Positions 24,150-64,000 of a stretch of 64,000 bases of DNA are shown here, one piece after another; position 1 is the stretch's first letter, and each line of letters starts with the position of its first letter. Made by a program: the position numbers and the translations under genes. The notes beneath the pieces were generated by a model. That model searched no databases, had not been told where the DNA came from, and saw only the letters and a list, made by a program, of their open reading frames with translations. This DNA comes from Candidatus Latescibacterota bacterium (GTDB taxonomy: Bacteria; Latescibacterota; UBA2968; UBA8231): the NCBI GenBank assembly GCA_022827835.1, contig JAJEIO010000032.1:117748-181747 (forward strand), read 5' to 3'.

Positions 24150-24375
24150 GGCAATCGGTTAGTAATTAGGGCTTGGCAAGCTATCCGAACTGGATTGCGG
24201 GTGGGGTGGTATCCGCAATAGGCAAAAATCGTGCTAGGGCGGCGGCTCAGAGGGGAGGCGGGGGATAGGAGGTGCTGGAGTGTAGCGGAAAGGTTACAGG
24301 AATGGGAAAGTTGGGGACAAAAGCGGCGTAACGTCAGTTAATTAATCGGAATAAATTAAGTTATGGGCTTATCGT

Positions 24376-56527: not shown

Positions 56528-57772
56528 CTACGGCTTGCCGATCAGGACGATCCGATTGGTGTTGGTGCCTTTTTTGCGGTTGTCCACGCCCCAGCAGTTT
56601 GCGGTCTTGGTGAACATTTGATCGTTGACCAAGACCATCAGCGGCTTGAGGCCAGCCTCCGTGGCCGCGGGCACGACGAGGGTTTCCAGTAGGATTTTGC
56701 CATTGCGGACCTCGCCCACCTCAAAGGCAACAAAGCCCCCGCTTGCGAGGATCCGGTGCAACTCTCGGAAGGTGCAGGTCATCGCTGCTTGCCAGTCCGC
56801 TGGTTTTTTTAATTGCCATATAGCCACCTCTTTGGCATCGATGCCGTTAAACCAGCAGCGCAGCCAGTTGTCTGCTTGGTAGTTGACGATGTCCAAAAAG
56901 GGCGGCGAGGTAACGGCGAGTTGGATGGATTCGCTGACGATGGCGGAGGTATTGTCAGACGAGCCGGTTACGAGCAGGGGGGTATTCGCCGTCAGCGTTT
57001 CCAGCTCGCGTGCTTGCAGCTTGCTCAGTAAGGATTTCGTCTTGCGGAGGATGATGGCCTTTATGTCGCGTTCAGGCGGTACTTGAGCGCGTTTTTGGTT
57101 GATGCGTTTTTGCGACTCAATGGACACCGCCTGATTAGGCGGCAGCGTATATACGGAGAAAAATCCCGGCGAGTGCCCGGTCAGGCGGTTGGTCGCCACC
57201 ATCTGAATCCACGCATCAACGCGGTCGAGTGGCCCTTCTTGGCGGCGTGTGAGGAGGTAGGAGCGCAGGTTGACGATTTGGCGAAGCGTATTGGGGTGAT
57301 AAAAGACGAGGAGATCGTCCCAGACCTCGCTCGATTTGTCGAGGTCCAGCGCCGTCAAGCGCGTTTCTACTTCGTTCCATGTGGGTGGATCTAGGCGAGG
57401 GCGGACTAGGCGCTCGCTGAGGGGGTTTATGTCGCAGCCGATGGGGCGGCGGCCTAACAGCGCTGCTTCGAGGACCGTGGTGCCGCGCCCCATGAACGGG
57501 TCGTACACTGCGTCGCCGGGTTGCGTCAGGCGGCTGATGAAAAACCTCGGCAATTGCGGCTTGAAACAGGCGCGATAGGAGACCTCGTGGAGCGAGTGGG
57601 CGGCGCGCTGCTTGGCGGTCCAAAACTCGTTGACGTACACCGGAATGGAAACGGTCGGATCGGGAAAGTCGAGGATGTTTGTCTCTTTGCCAAAATCCAC
57701 AAAGGCTTGGATTTCGTCGGCGAATTCGCTGGCGTTTAGAGGTTTATTCCTCGCCAACGCACTAGCTCCCAC
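56528..57772 (-). CDS. Site-specific DNA methyltransferase (N4-C or N6-A; motif I before motif IV), apparently orphan
   Basis: AVYDPFMGRGTTVLEAALLGRRPIGCDINP (AdoMet motif I) at about residue 90 and VTSPPFLDIVNY (catalytic SPPF) at about residue 293. GTG start at 57772 overlaps the amidohydrolase stop. The exact start is uncertain. Confidence 0.8.
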   Translation of the reverse strand: MGASALARNKPLNASEFADEIQAFVDFGKETNILDFPDPTVSIPVYVNEFWTAKQRAAHSLHEVSYRACFKPQLPRFFISRLTQPGDAVYDPFMGRGTTVLEAALLGRRPIGCDINPLSERLVRPRLDPPTWNEVETRLTALDLDKSSEVWDDLLVFYHPNTLRQIVNLRSYLLTRRQEGPLDRVDAWIQMVATNRLTGHSPGFFSVYTLPPNQAVSIESQKRINQKRAQVPPERDIKAIILRKTKSLLSKLQARELETLTANTPLLVTGSSDNTSAIVSESIQLAVTSPPFLDIVNYQADNWLRCWFNGIDAKEVAIWQLKKPADWQAAMTCTFRELHRILASGGFVAFEVGEVRNGKILLETLVVPAATEAGLKPLMVLVNDQMFTKTANCWGVDNRKKGTNTNRIVLIGKP

Positions 57773-60505: not shown

Positions 60506-60720
60506 GTTTTACCTGTTAAAGTTTGCTTGAGCAGGATAGGCAAAGAGCGCGTTCTATGTCGAGTATATCTCTTCTAATATCTTCCCTCAAGCTCGCCAGA
60601 CAAAGGGGCTTGATCATGCCCGCCAGAGTAGCCTGCAATTTTCTTCCAGCCGATAGCCCTGCTTATCTTGCATCAACAGCGTATATTTTTGTTTCCTAAA
60701 GCAAGGAGAGCACGCCACCC

Positions 60721-61602
60721 GTGATCTTAACCCTGCCAACAGATAAGCTGACGCCGCGCACAGCCGATGAATTCCTCGTAGAATTTCTCGACTACGCGCA
60801 CGGAGCCGTGCCGGGGCAACCCTTGGAGGTTGATCTACGGCCCCTGCACTTTATTGATCCCTACGGCTTGGTGGCCTTGTGCTTGCTGGCGCGCTACGGG
60901 GACGCGCTCTCGTCGCGGGTCGTCTTTCACCTGCCTCATGCCTTTGCATTGCGGACCTATCTGGGACGGGTGCGGTTCGCCGCGGCCGTGGAGGGGGTTG
61001 AACTGGTTGGGCCGGCGCTCATCGTGGATCAGGAGCGGGAAAAGGAAGAGAGCGAGGCCCTGCTGGAAATCACGCGGATTGAGGAGCGGGCGGATATTGA
61101 GACCGTGTTGGGCAAGATCGGTCAGCGCGTCGAGGCGATTCTGGCCGAGGAATTGCGCTACACCGAGGTGGAGATCAATCAGTTTAAAAACGTCGTCGCC
61201 GAATTGTGCCATAACATTCTCGACCACAGCGAGAATTGGGGCTACCTCACGGCCCAGCGCTACTTGGACTCGCGGGCGGGGAAAAAATACGTGGTCATCG
61301 GCGTGGGGGATCTCGGCATCGGGATCAAAAAGAGTCTATCGGTGCGCTATGACGCGGCGGACTGGTCGCATGGCACGGCTATCCTCAACTCGTTGCAGAA
61401 GCACTTTTCCCGCGACGCCACGCGCGGTCTCGGGCTGTACATCGTCAACCAGATTTGCAATCGCTATAATGGCTCGTTGCACATCCGCTCGGGAGATACG
61501 CGGGTCTATATTCGCGGCCAGCGGCACTGGGAACACGCTTCGGTCCACTTTCCCGGCACCCAAATTGCCATTGCGCTCTATCAGCGCGAAGGAGGCGAGT
61601 AG
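60721..61602 (+). CDS. GHKL-fold (HATPase_c, SpoIIAB/RsbW-like) ATP-binding protein with N-terminal STAS-like segment
   Basis: GTG start with AAGGAG upstream. LEVDLRPLHFIDPYGLVALCLLARYG at the N-terminus. N-box VAELCHNILDHS, G1 GVGDLGIGI, G2 TRGLGLYIVNQI. Confidence 0.7.
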   Translation: MILTLPTDKLTPRTADEFLVEFLDYAHGAVPGQPLEVDLRPLHFIDPYGLVALCLLARYGDALSSRVVFHLPHAFALRTYLGRVRFAAAVEGVELVGPALIVDQEREKEESEALLEITRIEERADIETVLGKIGQRVEAILAEELRYTEVEINQFKNVVAELCHNILDHSENWGYLTAQRYLDSRAGKKYVVIGVGDLGIGIKKSLSVRYDAADWSHGTAILNSLQKHFSRDATRGLGLYIVNQICNRYNGSLHIRSGDTRVYIRGQRHWEHASVHFPGTQIAIALYQREGGE

Positions 61603-61605
61603 GCG

Positions 61606-61740
61606 ATGTTCGGTCAGCATCACAGGCCCCCCAAACCGCCCCGCTACGAGCCTTGGTTGCTGTTGGCCCTAGCGGTGGTCATTGCCGGCCTCGGCGTGGT
61701 CGCATACGTAGCCGTGAGCTTCTTATTTCCCGGCCTCTAG
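61606..61740 (+). CDS. Possible 44-aa single-pass membrane micro-protein
   Basis: Hand-translated: MFGQHHRPPKPPRYEPWLLLALAVVIAGLGVVAYVAVSFLFPGL*. It starts 4 nt after the upstream stop, with GGAGG 10 nt upstream. Below the ORF-track size cutoff. Confidence 0.35.
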   Translation: MFGQHHRPPKPPRYEPWLLLALAVVIAGLGVVAYVAVSFLFPGL

Positions 61741-61797
61741 CCCCATCATATTGGTATTCGTCTAATTCCGCATCGCTCATTTTGTGGTAGAAATTGC

Positions 61798-61826
61798 TTG
61801 ACAGTCGGGAAATCTCCGCGTAAGTT
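61798..61826 (+). promoter_or_regulatory. Sigma70-like promoter candidate upstream of the DUF4325-wHTH gene
   Basis: TTGACA, 17 nt, then TAAGTT. It is followed by the TTAA-rich inverted repeat AGTTAA-N8-TTAACT (61842-61861). Confidence 0.25.
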
Positions 61827-61879
61827 TCCTTAATTGAATACAGTTAAGCTATTTTTTAACTACAGGAAAGGCGCGGCTC

Positions 61880-62470
61880 ATGGATACAGCCGTTGAAGAG
61901 CACGTACAGCAGCAGGCCATACACCAAGCCCCCGCATACCTGTTTTCCGGCGAACAGGGCATCCTCAGCGGACGGCCCCGAGGGGCCGAGTTGCTTGAAG
62001 AATTGATGCAGCACCTGCTCAGCGGTCCAACCGACGCGGCCACACCGCTCGACTTCTCCCGCGTTTCGTTCATGGATGTCTCGTGCGCCGATGAGATGCT
62101 CAACAAGCTGCTCTTGCGCCTGACCAGTGGTGAGATAGGGCATCGCTACGTCTATATCGCTGAGGCCAATATCTCGGTGCGCGAGACTATCGCGGCCGTG
62201 CTGCAACTGCGCGAGTTGGCCGCGCTGTACAAAGACGGTGATCGCGTCGAGGTGCTCGGGGTACTCAAGACGCCGATGCGCGAGGCGCTCGACGTGCTGC
62301 TGGCGCATAAGTGCGCGACCTCGGCCGAGATTTCCGACGCGCTTGGCAAAAACATCAACATCGTCTGCAATCGCCTCAACGCCCTGCAACGCCTCGGGTT
62401 GGTGTGCCGCCTGCGCGATGGGTCGGTCGTCGGTGGTGGGCGGCAATTCTACTATGTCTCGATTGTCTAA
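61880..62470 (+). CDS. STAS-like (DUF4325) domain protein with C-terminal winged-helix DNA-binding domain
   Basis: PLDFSRVSFMDVSCADEMLNKLLLRL (the DUF4325 hallmark). C-terminal CATSAEISDALGKNINIVCNRLNALQRLGLVCR (wHTH). Confidence 0.65.
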   Translation: MDTAVEEHVQQQAIHQAPAYLFSGEQGILSGRPRGAELLEELMQHLLSGPTDAATPLDFSRVSFMDVSCADEMLNKLLLRLTSGEIGHRYVYIAEANISVRETIAAVLQLRELAALYKDGDRVEVLGVLKTPMREALDVLLAHKCATSAEISDALGKNINIVCNRLNALQRLGLVCRLRDGSVVGGGRQFYYVSIV

Positions 62471-63125
62471 ATACTCCCTAGCATCGGCCTTAGCCGCTGC
62501 CTTGGCCTTGGGAGCCGTGGCGGCCAAGCTGCGTAGCGACCACACCTTCGTCGTCGAGGCCAGCGTGGAGAACTTTCGCGATGCGCCTAACGGCACCAAG
62601 CTGGGCACTTTGCTGGCTGGTACGGAGATCGAGTCCATTGGCGAGGAGGGCCGATGGGTGCGCTTCCGCGTCGAAGGCTGGGTCTGGGGGCCTTCCTTAG
62701 AAGGCTATGTCTCCGAGGAGGAGCGCGATGAGCTGGAGGAGGAGCCGATCCCGCCGCTCCAAGACGAGCGACCCCGGATCAAGGAACTGGTCAACGACCG
62801 CTATGGGGTGTTCTATGGGGTTGGGTTGGACGAGGATATTGGCCGGCTGTGGCTGCGGTTCCGCGTCCGCGACATCGAGCGCGAGGCGTGGGAGCGGCGC
62901 GCATTTGCCGTACAGCGCGGCGCGTTTGAGCTGTTGCAGGGCCGCGTCGAGTTCAGCGAAATCCGCATTGAGACCAACCGGCCCGACGGCAGCGGCGAGG
63001 TAGGCCAGTACATCGCCGCGACCGCGGCTGCCGACTTGGCTGATGCCGGTGAGGATTGGGCAGTGTGGCGGCAGCATACGCGCTTTTCGATTGATGGGGG
63101 CGAAACGTGGGAAGAGGCCGAATAA
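62454..63125 (+). CDS. Signal-anchored/exported protein with SH3b-like domain
   Basis: ATG 62454 lies within ORF 62238..63125 and gives MSRLSKYSLASALAAALALGAVAA. VEASVENFRDAPNGTKLGTLLAGTEIESIGEEGRWVRFRVEGWVW is SH3b-like. Overlaps the upstream gene by 17 nt. Confidence 0.55.
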   Translation: MSRLSKYSLASALAAALALGAVAAKLRSDHTFVVEASVENFRDAPNGTKLGTLLAGTEIESIGEEGRWVRFRVEGWVWGPSLEGYVSEEERDELEEEPIPPLQDERPRIKELVNDRYGVFYGVGLDEDIGRLWLRFRVRDIEREAWERRAFAVQRGAFELLQGRVEFSEIRIETNRPDGSGEVGQYIAATAAADLADAGEDWAVWRQHTRFSIDGGETWEEAE

Positions 63126-64000
63126 ATGCGCGCATCGCGACGGGGCCGATCCAGAGCGGCCCGCAAGGCTAATGCCATGTTGGATTTGTATGCGGTAAAG
63201 ACCCAAATAGACAGCATGGTGGCCGACGAGCGCCGCGTCCAAGAAGACTTTCGCGCCAAGCTCGAATTGGCGTTGGCCGAATACCGGCGCTGGCTGCCCG
63301 AGTGGGAGCGCTTGGCTCGCAAGATCAACGACAGCCGCACCTCTTGGCTGTTGCCCGGCTTGGGTGAGGGCCTCGGCGGCGGAATCGACGCGCCCGACCG
63401 CCCGAGCACCATCAGCATCGCCGCCACGGACGGCTCGCAGATTTTTCCCGACCGCCACGAAATCTCGGCCTGTTTTCTGATCAATATCGGCTACATCCTG
63501 CTGCACTACGGCACGGGCGAGAAGCCGCTGATGAGCAGCAAGCCGCGGCTCTATTACCGCGAGGAGGAAATCTACGAGGAATGGGGTGGGGCGCGGGTCT
63601 TCGTCAATCGCGAGCTCGTCGGCTTCAAGCGCGGCCTCATGGAGTTCACCGAGTTGGCCGATTTGGCGTTGGCAGCCCACGCCGAGGGGCACCGGACGCT
63701 GGCGCTTGCCGATGGCACGCTGATTCTGTGGAACTTGGAGGGCAAGCCGCAGGACTTCCGCGCTGCGCACCTAGAGGCCACCATAGCGGCGATGGATGAA
63801 TTGCGCGAGGCGCGGGTGCCGGTGGCTGGGTACATCAGCCAGCCGGGGAGCCAAGAATTGATCAACGCCCTCAAGCTGGGACTGTGTCCACTGGCCGCGG
63901 CCGACTGCGACCGCTGCCCCTATCAGGAAGAAAACCAGCTCCACTTCAGCCGCGAAGAGGTTGATGCCTTGAACGGGGATTTGTGGCAGGGGCGTGGCTT
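63126..64000 (+). CDS. NurA-like 5'-3' nuclease domain protein (3' end beyond window)
   Basis: Hand translation, open to the window end: MRASRRGRS...ISIAATDGSQIFPDRHEISACFLINIGYILLHYG...TLALADGTLILWNLEG...VAGYISQPGS. The DGSQ and DGTL Asp motifs are typical of NurA. ATG follows directly after the TAA of the upstream gene. Not in the ORF track (no stop). Confidence 0.6.
   Translation, partial: MRASRRGRSRAARKANAMLDLYAVKTQIDSMVADERRVQEDFRAKLELALAEYRRWLPEWERLARKINDSRTSWLLPGLGEGLGGGIDAPDRPSTISIAATDGSQIFPDRHEISACFLINIGYILLHYGTGEKPLMSSKPRLYYREEEIYEEWGGARVFVNRELVGFKRGLMEFTELADLALAAHAEGHRTLALADGTLILWNLEGKPQDFRAAHLEATIAAMDELREARVPVAGYISQPGSQELINALKLGLCPLAAADCDRCPYQEENQLHFSREEVDALNGDLWQGRG

Follow-up and report, generated by a model that had tools for sequence, protein, structure and literature searches.

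A CapK/CapS-type phospho-switch responding to DNA damage probably controls a chromosomal NurA-HerA DNA-end-resection operon in the Latescibacterota, as represented in a 64,000-nt stretch of contig JAJEIO010000032.1 (the window). Its kinase and its STAS-winged-helix (wHTH) protein are homologous to CapK and CapS, and conservation extends to the phospho-acceptor serine, the catalytic residues of the kinase and the GG of the wing; the promoter/operator footprint is phylum-wide, and the gene order capS-nurA-HAS-herA is strict. In the mechanism we propose, a dimer of the CapS-like 196-aa protein would bind a TTAA-N10-TTAA operator directly past the -10 element of the capS promoter and repress a single unit made up of capS, an SH3b-like gene, nurA, a HAS-barrel gene and herA. 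Single-stranded DNA (ssDNA) arising from DNA damage would activate the CapK-like 293-aa STAS-GHKL kinase, which would phosphorylate Ser68, where STAS helix alpha-2 begins; the CapS-like dimer would then dissociate and quit the DNA, inducing NurA-HerA along with further repressor. That the repressor binds DNA, that it is phosphorylated, that ssDNA activates the kinase and that the operon is inducible are inferred by analogy with the Enterobacter roggenkampii system, which has been characterised by experiment.

A preprint on CapK/CapS, the "controller of adjacent pathways", appeared in February 2026, and the EMBO J article followed in June (Chambers, Rani, Min, Villa, Corbett, EMBO J 2026; PMC13373217; PDB: 9Z71–9Z73). 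Once switched on by ssDNA, CapK phosphorylates a STAS-domain serine of the repressor CapS, and phosphorylated CapS departs from its TTAA-palindrome operators; all 443 capK genes have capS immediately 3' (PMC13373217). A preliminary description of the present DNA had proposed a sigma-less module in which a GHKL kinase acts on a STAS domain with its own DNA-binding output, and knew of no description of such a combination. The first idea holds in its essentials, having been demonstrated for the homologous CapK/CapS pair (PMC13373217), and the second has been overtaken by the same publication. The gene layout of the preliminary description (STAS-GHKL, micro-ORF, STAS-wHTH, SH3b-like, NurA-like) was confirmed ORF by ORF, coordinates included:

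60721–61602, + strand: capK-like ORF, GTG start, 293 aa
61606–61740, + strand: micro-ORF, ATG start, 44 aa, 3 nt past the capK-like stop
61741–61879: spacer, 139 nt, 41.7% GC versus 60.1% for the window
61798–61826, + strand: promoter of the capS-nurA-herA operon, read off the sequence (-35 TTGACA, 61798–61803; 17-nt spacer; -10 TAAGTT, 61821–61826)
61830–61847, no strand assigned: predicted CapS operator TTAATTGAATACAGTTAA, TTAA-N10-TTAA; family consensus TTAATTGAATTCAATTAA
61856–61859, no strand assigned: third TTAA, 8 nt past the operator, right arm of AGTTAA-N8-TTAACT
61880–62470, + strand: capS-like ORF, 196 aa
62454–63125, + strand: SH3b-like ORF, 223 aa, 17-nt overlap with the capS-like gene
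63126–64000, + strand: 5' part of nurA, ATG abutting the preceding TAA, 291 of 428 codons, exits the window

Genes past the window edge were taken from a near-identical related locus, L001 (97.8% identical). For the NurA domain the score rose from 66.6 bits with the window fragment to 141.6 bits with the complete L001 orthologue, which bears out the earlier NurA-like call. The search for HerA downstream, suggested at the same time, was successful in L001 and the related loci: nurA is followed in L001 by genes for a HAS-barrel protein of 218 aa and for HerA (560 aa), which combines HAS-barrel and DUF87 domains. The joints of the operon are the overlap and the abutting TAA-ATG listed above and, in L001, gaps of 11 nt and 2 nt; the gene after herA lies on the opposite strand. 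Wherever the contig extends that far, the order capS-nurA-HAS-herA is found in all 80 related loci, and HerA is 66–100% identical. An ordinary NurA-HerA repair operon unrelated to the genes upstream had been named as the outcome that would speak against the module; NurA-HerA is indeed what lies downstream, but it is not unrelated, since a capS-like gene is invariably its first gene (80/80). Archaeal and Deinococcus-Thermus NurA-HerA systems likewise encode a NurA nuclease domain together with a HerA composed of a HAS-barrel and a DUF87 ATPase, whereas the operon here has an additional stand-alone HAS-barrel gene between nurA and herA, lacks mre11/rad50 genes and starts with the gene of a dedicated, predicted phospho-switch repressor.

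The 223-aa protein combines an N-terminal hydrophobic signal/anchor with a weak SH3b-like segment, and its C-terminal part contains the Asp-box SIDGGETW (63087–63110; BNR, E = 0.03). The SH3b-like domain called earlier is visible as that segment, but SH3_3 scored 22 bits, under the cut-off of 27. The gene sits between capS and nurA in the closer clade only (43–99% identity) and is probably a clade-specific passenger of the operon.

The same switch could instead serve an anti-phage effector: NurA-HerA, once induced, would break down invading or damaged DNA in the manner of other defence systems that are under CapKS control or pair HerA with a nuclease. As many as 348 of the 443 capKS pairs have a known or predicted immune operon after them (PMC13373217), and the closest such pair found beyond the Latescibacterota family, in locus L092, has the canonical CapKS setting: a restriction-modification system, then adjacent capK and capS (44% and 38% identical to the present kinase and CapS-like protein), then a CBASS operon (SAVED and SMODS). 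HerA ATPases also pair with Sir2 or DUF4297 effectors in defence, the HerA here matches PDB entries of that kind, and the clade-2 locus L088 has a SEFIR/TIR gene inserted between its nurA and herA. The distribution of the operon argues the other way. It occurs once per species-representative locus, is apparently single-copy and chromosomal, and has been passed on vertically in 88 species, nearly all of them labelled Latescibacterota; all the related Latescibacterota genomes are metagenome-assembled. This is a core-gene pattern, unlike that of patchy defence islands. The neighboring genes upstream in the window are metabolic, and PADLOC models matched none of the five proteins, save for weak wHTH matches. 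An anti-phage role has some chance of being correct but is unlikely.

In the switch reading that we prefer, the 293-aa protein is a predicted serine kinase and, judged by its sequence, a distant CapK homologue. HATPase_c scored 36.1 bits (cut-off 26.4) and STAS_2 22.3 bits, below its cut-off of 29.2; together with the motifs these matches uphold the STAS-GHKL fusion claimed earlier. The key residues of the N-box (AELCHNILDHS, 160–170), G1 (DLGIGI, 197–202) and G2 (GLGLYIV, 236–242) are invariant among 25 homologues. The AF2 model (pLDDT 88.7) matched histidine-kinase CA domains, RsbW and UsfX in Foldseek, as well as the STAS folds 4hyl and 2q3l. Alignment to E. roggenkampii CapK with hhalign (probability 94%, E = 1.4e-7) placed N165 on the catalytic residue N218 and the basic patch R186/K189/K190 on the K237/K239 region. 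The N-terminal HTH of canonical CapK is absent, which counts against the homology-based reading; deletion of this HTH from CapK had no effect (PMC13373217). The apparent equivalent of the ssDNA-stacking W68 of CapK is Leu or Phe in this kinase family rather than a conserved aromatic, at a place where the N-terminal alignment is unreliable, so ssDNA sensing by the 293-aa kinase is only putative.

Co-conservation across related genomes, which the preliminary description had put forward for checking, was complete for capS with nurA-HAS-herA, but only about half of the loci have a capK-like gene linked to the operon. A large clade has the gene elsewhere in the genome, behind TPR genes in another operon, and the co-occurrence of kinase and operon in one genome was seen directly only on a single 491-kb contig. 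The kinase might be a mere neighbor, the GHKL protein having another substrate or being an ATPase while the repressor answers a different signal. The unlinked clade speaks for this possibility, as do the proline that replaces the phospho-serine in the kinase's own STAS domain (FIDPYG) and the CapS-like genes of L094 and L096, which no kinase gene adjoins. We nevertheless regard it as quite improbable. Both proteins jointly resemble the adjacent L092 pair, in which the kinase is also HTH-less; adjacency looks ancestral because it is present in the most divergent Latescibacterota branches (L075–L082); the catalytic motifs do not vary; and the unlinked clade has retained its kinase gene.

The 44-aa micro-ORF encodes a Pro/Lys-rich N terminus (FGxxHxPPKPPxYEP) followed by a single hydrophobic helix. 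It is kept wherever capK is adjacent, with identity ranging from 100% down to approximately 40%, and is absent behind capK in the clade with unlinked capK. Its offset from the capK stop is 3 nt in close relatives and differs in more distant loci, and its start codon is ATG, GTG or TTG. The separation of capK from capS by this ORF and a promoter, like the unlinking of capK in the large clade, runs counter to the switch model.

The 196-aa protein is, from its sequence, a distant CapS homologue and a predicted phospho-regulated repressor. In its AF2 model (pLDDT 88.6) an alpha/beta domain of STAS type precedes a winged helix; the latter matched many solved structures at 1.3–2.5 Å rmsd, and the search also matched the STAS domain of RsbS. 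Pfam-type searches gave only weak STAS_2 and wHTH matches. The DUF4325-wHTH assignment made previously is right as to a STAS domain plus winged helix, but PF14213 (DUF4325) is borne only by relatives at 25–40% identity and did not match the protein itself at E ≤ 1. The family profile matched CapS from Vibrio cholerae (PDB: 9Z72) at E = 7.4e-8 and from E. roggenkampii (PDB: 9Z71) at E = 0.0023 (PDB identities from PMC13373217). Alignments by hhalign were nearly full length, with probabilities of 95.8% for Vibrio CapS (E = 7e-9, 157 columns) and 82.6% for the E. roggenkampii protein, at 20–24% sequence identity to canonical CapS. S68, aligned to the CapS phospho-serine S54/S58, is close to invariant among 28 diverse family members, and the wing residues G186-G187 align to G169-G170. 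The CapS DNA-contact residue N145 is not kept (I161 here), which weighs against the assignment. The protein is 55–99% identical across the phylum with 53 invariant columns; phylum-wide identity of about 60% or more is unusually high for a simple repressor and also sits awkwardly with our model.

The TTGACA-17-TAAGTT promoter noted previously is present. Its cTTGAC lies 32–39 nt 5' of the operator in every distinct orthologous sequence and is followed by a -10-like hexamer; a generic promoter scan did not flag the capS promoter because TAAGTT agrees at just three of six positions. The predicted operator begins 3 nt past the -10 and spans the likely transcription start. Its consensus (≤3 mismatches) occurs in 81 of 82 loci, always 5' of the capS-like gene, with both TTAA half-sites essentially invariant, and nowhere else in 1.43 Mb. 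This single operator per locus in the sampled DNA gives no sign of a wider regulon. Within the window, TTAA-N10-TTAA matched twice (0.21 expected by chance) and the consensus palindrome, at ≤3 mismatches, once (0.00 expected). Half-site and 10-bp spacing are those of the experimentally defined CapS "wide palindrome", which is bound in vitro and in ChIP-seq (PMC13373217) and was recovered in L090 at 6341; the "narrow" TTAAnTTAA site is absent here. The inverted repeat AGTTAA-N8-TTAACT reported earlier does exist at 61842–61861, overlapping this palindrome, but it is not the conserved operator: its right arm, the third TTAA, is found in most close relatives, is missing from L007, L011, L016–L018 and L022, and is not phylum-wide. 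This third TTAA may be an auxiliary half-site.

Conservation of the STAS-wHTH protein, and the constant first place of its gene in the nurA-herA unit, would also fit a mainly structural or DNA-loading subunit of NurA-HerA whose phosphorylation gates the enzyme. VapKSC provides a precedent, in that a CapS-like STAS protein directly inhibits a nuclease (PMC13373217). The CapK-like kinase of that system is described by STAS and GHKL alone, with no HTH mentioned, which matches the kinase here; it acts through a conserved Ser/Thr on a STAS protein, as predicted for the present pair, and the system is likewise linked to a nuclease (PMC13373217). However, VapS has a short C-terminal helix in place of a wHTH and binds and inhibits a PIN nuclease (PMC13373217), whereas the protein here keeps a full wHTH with its GG wing, and the nuclease is NurA with the HerA ATPase rather than VapC. 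The wHTH and the operator, conserved and perfectly placed at the protein's own promoter with CapS half-site and spacing, point to transcriptional control; subunit and transcription-factor roles would be compatible, and we consider a mainly structural role improbable. Classical partner switching, with a sigma factor and PP2C phosphatase encoded elsewhere, is very improbable: the GHKL serine kinase and STAS substrate folds and the phospho-serine position are shared with SpoIIAB/SpoIIAA and RsbW/RsbV, and there are weak sequence or fold matches to SpoIIAA, RsbV, RsbS, RsbW and UsfX, but no sigma factor or PP2C gene was called within approximately 10 kb in L001, as the preliminary description had held for the module, the STAS domain shares its polypeptide with a DNA-binding domain, a conserved operator is present and the protein is a predicted repressor, and CapS is a much closer match than any anti-anti-sigma factor, with no STAS antagonist among the profile matches at E ≤ 10.

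As a predicted autoregulating repressor removed upon ssDNA or DNA damage, the CapS-like protein resembles LexA/SOS, CapW/BrxR and CapH with CapP, but those proteins are unrelated to the ones here, and its inactivation would be by phosphorylation rather than RecA-stimulated autocleavage (LexA), proteolysis (CapP) or ligand binding (CapW). The closest parallel is CapK/CapS itself. In both, a GHKL kinase that itself contains a STAS domain goes with a STAS-wHTH partner of ~185–196 aa that has a phospho-acceptor serine where STAS helix alpha-2 begins, as well as a wing GG motif, the kinase gene is 5' of the repressor gene where the two are linked, and a TTAA-N10-TTAA palindrome marks the repressor promoter, with the regulated operon 3' on the same strand. 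The present system differs in its kinase without an N-terminal HTH, in the membrane micro-ORF and promoter between capK and capS, in the unlinked capK of one clade, and in an operator 5' of capS, the cargo operon here beginning with capS itself. CapK/CapS is carried on plasmids and in defence islands, whereas inheritance here is chromosomal and phylum-wide. A cargo of NurA, HAS-barrel protein and HerA falls outside the classes of the CapK/CapS paper and is mentioned in neither its text nor its 69 supplement files (PMC13373217). By its sequence, the kinase and STAS-wHTH pair is distantly related to the CapK/CapS DNA-damage switch, and what is new in the Latescibacterota is its NurA-HerA cargo, its vertical, phylum-wide conservation, its HTH-less kinase and a conserved 44-aa membrane micro-protein.

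ORF reading and Pfam searches bore out the coordinates, motifs and overlaps given in the preliminary description of the right-hand end of the window, where the following features are arranged.

Features of the capK-like/capS-like module (window coordinates)
60721-61602, + strand: capK-like ORF, GTG start, 293 aa
61606-61740, + strand: micro-ORF, ATG start, 44 aa, beginning 3 nt past the capK-like stop
61741-61879: spacer, 139 nt, 41.7% GC compared with 60.1% for the whole window
61880-62470, + strand: capS-like ORF, 196 aa
62454-63125, + strand: SH3b-like ORF, 223 aa, overlapping the capS-like gene by 17 nt
from 63126, + strand: nurA ORF, partial, abutting the TAA of the 223-aa ORF and continuing past the window edge

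Pfam confirmed two of the domains originally called by eye, HATPase_c in the 293-aa protein (36.1 bits, above the cut-off) and NurA in the partial protein at the window edge (66.6 bits), and placed two others, STAS_2 at the N terminus of the 293-aa protein (22.3 bits) and SH3_3 in the 223-aa protein (22 bits), below threshold. The 196-aa protein had been described as DUF4325-type; it gave weak STAS_2 and winged-helix matches and no match to DUF4325 (PF14213) at E≤1. Homologues at 25–40% identity, several intermediate members, do carry PF14213, so the DUF4325 label holds only at the superfamily level. NCBIfam returned only sub-threshold histidine-kinase and winged helix-turn-helix (wHTH) matches, and the PADLOC models returned weak wHTH matches for the 196-aa protein and nothing for the kinase, micro-ORF, SH3b-like protein or NurA. 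The 223-aa protein begins with a hydrophobic signal or anchor and contains, besides the SH3b segment that scored below threshold, a perfect Asp-box, SIDGGETW (63087-63110); it is apparently an exported protein within a DNA-repair operon.

A search for herA downstream had been proposed, and the gene was found past nurA in locus L001 (GCA_022819745.1), which encodes an identical 196-aa protein and is 97.8% identical to the window from 60681 on. In L001, nurA (428 codons; NurA, 141.6 bits) is followed after 11 nt by a gene for a 218-aa protein with a HAS-barrel as its sole domain (28.6 bits) and, 2 nt further on, by herA (560 aa; DUF87, 99.8 bits; HAS-barrel, 27.5 bits); the gene after herA is on the opposite strand. 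The locus therefore combines a NurA nuclease domain with an adjoining HerA that has both a HAS-barrel and an FtsK-like ATPase (DUF87). HerA matched the solved HerA structures 8wiv, 9x1l and 4d2i, and no PDB entry matched NurA by sequence at E≤0.01. Since the genes between 61880 and the end of herA overlap or are separated by only a few nucleotides, the capS-like gene through herA appear to form a single transcription unit.

The stand-alone HAS-barrel protein (~195–220 aa) lies between nurA and herA at L001 12545-13201 and at the equivalent position in all 80 loci compared. It has no BLASTP similarity to the HerA N terminus, which carries HerA's own HAS-barrel, and as an additional subunit it is unusual among NurA-HerA systems.

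The genes upstream of the module in the window encode a PhyH dioxygenase, an SMP-30/gluconolactonase, an amidohydrolase and a DNA methylase. The last is an N6_N4 DNA methyltransferase (56531-57772, − strand, 67.9 bits) that sits ~3 kb upstream amid metabolic genes, and no restriction endonuclease was recognised beside it. Synteny breaks recurrently at 60679-60681, ~40 nt before the capK-like gene begins. Upstream of this point, a TPR gene (1040 aa) and a gene for a 253-aa protein are present in some close relatives, and the PhyH dioxygenase gene, on the opposite strand, in others, among them the window, L003, L006 and L025. An assembly chimera was considered for the break against L001 at 60681 and rejected, since the window's upstream arrangement recurs in L003, L006 and L025, and also in L016 and L070.

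A GHKL kinase acting on a STAS protein with its own DNA-binding output, the mechanism predicted in the preliminary description, matches the published CapKS system (Chambers et al., EMBO J 2026; PMC13373217; preprint February 2026). According to that paper, CapK is an HTH-STAS-GHKL kinase and CapS a STAS-wHTH repressor of ~185 aa. CapK is activated by ssDNA and phosphorylates a conserved serine on helix alpha-2 of the CapS STAS domain; phosphorylation breaks the CapS dimer, which is then released from palindromes with TTAA half-sites, either "narrow" (TTAAnTTAA) or "wide" (TTAA-N10-TTAA), and capS and the adjacent operon are de-repressed.

The AF2 model of the 196-aa protein (pLDDT 88.6) has a STAS-type alpha/beta domain of beta-alpha topology followed by a winged helix, and Foldseek matched it to many wHTH regulators (probability 1.0, 1.3–2.5 Å rmsd) and to the STAS protein RsbS. 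In a search of the family profile against all PDB sequences, the CapKS entries 9Z72/9Z73 (E=7.4e-8) and 9Z71 (E=0.0023) were recovered, and hhalign aligned the family over nearly its full length with CapS from the Vibrio plasmid reference locus L091 (probability 95.8%, E=7e-9) and from the E. roggenkampii plasmid reference locus L090 (82.6%). A phosphorylatable serine had been suggested as a check on the STAS domain, and S68 is the candidate: the residue aligns with the phospho-serines S54 of E. roggenkampii CapS and S58 of V. cholerae CapS, is invariant in 18/18 family members, is kept in at least 90% of 28 diverse members including canonical CapS and has invariant acidic neighbours on both sides (D66, D71 and E72). 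Wing residues G186-G187, equivalent to CapS G169-G170, are as conserved as S68 in both sets; the position equivalent to the DNA-contact residue N145 is not conserved.

The top Foldseek match of the 196-aa model was Csa3 (CARF plus wHTH). Csa3 is a known regulator of nurA/herA in Sulfolobus. The match was rejected because it reflects a two-domain outline only (TM-score 0.26, rmsd 13 Å).

The spacer before the capS-like gene contains, in order, TTGACA (61798-61803), 17 nt, TAAGTT (61821-61826), 3 nt and TTAATTGAATACAGTTAA (61830-61847), a TTAA-N10-TTAA palindrome. With up to three mismatches, the family consensus TTAATTGAATTCAATTAA has a chance expectation of 0.00 in the window and occurred 81 times in 81/82 loci (1.43 Mb), always upstream of the capS-like gene; no second operator was found in these flanks. 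Both TTAA half-sites are essentially invariant, and every locus has a cTTGAC −35 element 32–39 nt upstream of the palindrome and then a −10-like hexamer; in 81/82 loci the palindrome begins 3–9 nt past the −10 element. Half-site and 10-bp spacing are those of the experimentally bound wide CapS palindrome, which we re-found at L090:6341; the narrow site was also re-found in L090, between capK and capS. The inverted repeat AGTTAA-N8-TTAACT, picked out earlier in this spacer, overlaps the palindrome, but its right arm is not conserved. A generic promoter scan did not flag the conserved promoter, so that its support is wholly phylogenetic. At the sequence level, the element is a predicted CapS-type operator overlapping the promoter. 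In the search for a wider CapS regulon, an exact-palindrome scan of metagenomes returned at least 120 loci; among the matches listed, 19 adjoin a capS-like gene, and the remainder are mostly AT-rich chance occurrences, plus a few GC-rich extras that have no cTTGACA promoter and form no coherent gene set.

The window has one other TTAA-N10-TTAA, TTAATCGGAATAAATTAA at 24342-24359, within the AT-rich interval that separates two minus-strand ORFs; it fits the operator consensus poorly and is probably a chance occurrence. In L043, L044 and L046, the 5' leader that runs from the operator to the capS-like start codon is filled, ~100–700 nt upstream of that codon, with tandem repeats, among them the heptamers (ACTGACC)n and (CCGTCTT)n.

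It is possible that the STAS-wHTH protein gates NurA-HerA directly, as VapS does VapC. In VapKSC, the STAS protein has a short C-terminal helix and is paired with the VapC PIN toxin, whereas here a full wHTH is present and is followed by the SH3b-like gene and nurA. The unusually strong conservation of the repressor would be compatible with an additional structural function, but the presence of the operator speaks for repression; the two activities could coexist. We retain transcriptional repression of the capS-like operon as the preferred reading.

The 196-aa protein has 166 database relatives, and the best 120 of the 166 are at least 58% identical to it and have no Pfam annotation. A relative is encoded by 88 of 185,579 species-representative genomes, almost all labelled Latescibacterota, with a few binned as Gemmatimonadota; the closest are sponge-associated metagenome-assembled genomes (MAGs), and all genomes of this comparison are MAGs. 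A tblastn matrix of 80 loci showed the capS-like gene, nurA, the HAS-barrel gene and herA in this order on the same strand wherever the contig reaches; the SH3b-like gene lies between capS and nurA in the closer clade only. NurA-HerA might serve as an immune effector here, as most CapKS cargo is immune and one clade-2 locus has an inserted TIR gene. Speaking against this are an inheritance that is vertical, apparently single-copy and phylum-wide, a HerA identity of 66–100% and the lack of PADLOC matches.

In the clade where capK is unlinked from capS, the operon is an insertion hotspot (L088 10684-16379, and between nurA and the HAS-barrel gene in L043-L046). Genes inserted between nurA and the HAS-barrel gene or herA encode SEFIR/TIR_2, oxidoreductase and AP-endonuclease-fold proteins, and capS is separated from nurA by an SdiA-regulated/phytase-like gene.

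The AF2 model of the kinase (pLDDT 88.7) resembles histidine-kinase CA domains, RsbW and UsfX, and its N terminus resembles SpoIIAA-like folds. By hhalign, the kinase matched CapK from the two reference loci with probabilities of 94% (E=1.4e-7) and 87%, over the GHKL domain and the end of the STAS domain (residues 68–287 against CapK 125–364). N165 aligns with the CapK catalytic N218, and E161, N165, D197, G199, G201, G236 and G238, in the N, G1 and G2 boxes, are invariant across 25 homologues. At 293 aa compared with 368 aa for CapK, the protein starts at the STAS domain and has no HTH. Chambers et al. (PMC13373217) report no phenotype for deletion of the CapK HTH and describe activation by ssDNA through an aromatic side chain, W68 in CapK and F54 in VapK, together with a basic groove (K237, K239). 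A basic patch, R186/K189/K190, aligns with the K237/K239 region. The apparent W68 equivalent is L10, Leu or Phe in homologues, at an N-terminal position where the alignment is unreliable. The weak points of a CapKS-type mechanism are the absent HTH, Leu/Phe at the apparent W68 position, the non-conserved N145, the unlinking of the kinase in one clade and the unusually strong conservation of the repressor.

Co-conservation of the genes, which had been named as a test, held for the capS-like gene, nurA, the HAS-barrel gene and herA in the 80 loci wherever the contig reaches and extended to capK in only part of them: the capK-like gene and micro-ORF are directly upstream of the capS-like gene in ~45 fetched loci, including the most divergent branches (L075-L082), and capK is elsewhere in the genome in ~35/80. 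In the unlinked clade, the capK orthologue (44–53% identity) lies behind TPR genes without the micro-ORF, and no predicted operator was found near these unlinked genes.

A profile search of 1.84 billion representative proteins yielded 755 CapS-like clusters at E≤1e-3. Among the members examined from outside the Latescibacterota family, P0244 is the closest, with 38% identity to the 196-aa protein, and directly upstream of it is a 297-aa HTH-less kinase sharing 44% identity with the window kinase. This pair (locus L092) lies between a restriction-modification (R-M) system and a CBASS operon (SAVED, SMODS), which is a textbook CapKS context. The kinase could be a mere neighbour of the capS-like gene, separated from it by the micro-ORF and unlinked in one clade, but both partners are jointly similar to the adjacent pair in L092, and adjacency persists in the most divergent branches. 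It is therefore very likely, judging from these sequence relationships, that the window's capK-like and capS-like genes are a functional pair.

[quoted passage not shown] In another group of loci (L093-L096), 186-aa CapS-like proteins are encoded upstream of rmuC (L094 8001-13381, L096 8001-10215, L093 and L095), on contigs two of which are labelled Nitrospirae and Scalinduaceae (Planctomycetota); a DinG-like helicase gene also adjoins the CapS-like gene and rmuC in L094. In this group, R-M systems have inserted immediately upstream, with a HATPase_c gene several kb away. These loci may represent a second link of CapS-like regulators to chromosomal recombination and repair genes.

In the micro-ORF product, a single hydrophobic helix comes after the motif FGxxHxPPKPPxYEP. 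The micro-ORF is present at 61606-61740 and at equivalent positions in L001-L037, L041, L075, L077, L078 and L082, begins 3 nt past the capK-like stop in close relatives and at other offsets farther out, and uses ATG, GTG or TTG. Its amino acid conservation reaches down to ~40% identity, and it is missing wherever capK is unlinked. The accessible text of PMC13373217 mentions no such counterpart for CapK.

Classical sigma partner switching is very unlikely: SpoIIAB-SpoIIAA and RsbW-RsbV come with a cognate sigma factor and a PP2C phosphatase, whereas, in agreement with the preliminary description, the module has neither, no sigma factor or PP2C/SpoIIE Pfam family occurs among the called genes within ~10 kb in L001, and the pair is far closer to CapS/CapK.

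The window pair is a member of the CapK/CapS family in the broad sense, for which two published descriptors do not hold. Shared features are the STAS plus winged-helix layout of CapS, the phospho-acceptor serine, and the asparagine and ATP-binding G boxes of the kinase. The published CapK is HTH-STAS-GHKL, whereas the kinase here is STAS-GHKL; capS immediately follows capK in the published systems, whereas a 44-aa ORF and a 139-nt promoter region intervene here. The adjacent downstream operon, an immune or stress operon in CapKS, is here nurA/HAS-barrel/herA, a class not listed in that paper. Until now CapK/CapS had been described only as regulating anti-phage or ubiquitin-like (Bub) stress operons, chiefly those of proteobacterial plasmids and islands. 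NurA, HerA and Latescibacteria are not mentioned in the text of PMC13373217 or its 69 supplement files, and literature searches found no link between CapK/CapS and HerA or between Latescibacteria and NurA. The cargo and the mode of inheritance also differ from those of published CapKS.

Observed here are the homology to CapK/CapS, the conserved catalytic and acceptor residues, the footprint of operator and promoter, and the layout of the operon. By analogy with the E. roggenkampii experiments, the proteins would also share DNA binding, phosphotransfer, ssDNA sensing and inducibility, and we infer that the CapS-like protein controls the nurA/HAS-barrel/herA operon. A CapS-like dimer on the operator, across the transcription start, would repress capS, the SH3b-like gene, nurA, the HAS-barrel gene and herA; DNA damage would generate ssDNA and activate the CapK-like kinase, and phosphorylation of S68 would dissolve the dimer and induce the resection machinery. 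A wider reading, which we put forward tentatively and would not favour over its negation, is that Latescibacterota CapK/CapS is a vertically inherited, LexA-like damage sensor of a core double-strand-break resection machine rather than a mobile-element accessory, that this circuit and the CapKS of proteobacterial defence islands have a common origin, with regulators exchanged between repair and immunity, and that the membrane micro-protein, made directly after the kinase, is a further, previously undescribed part of the circuit and tethers or modulates CapK.

The authors of the CapKS study left open whether the system serves immunity or a more general stress role (PMC13373217). The locus described here is a conserved chromosomal version of CapKS tied to a recognised DNA-repair machine across a whole uncultured phylum, with the TTAA-N10-TTAA geometry kept even though the proteins are only ~20–24% identical, and it offers a concrete case in which CapKS logic appears to drive an SOS-type DNA-damage response. 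It extends the CapK family to kinases that lack the HTH, and it brings in two further conserved partners: the membrane peptide of 44 aa and the separately encoded HAS-barrel protein. To our knowledge, the regulation of bacterial NurA-HerA is essentially unknown, and the locus hints at how it may be switched on. For the Latescibacterota, of which we know of no cultured members and no genetics, it provides a testable operator/repressor pair.
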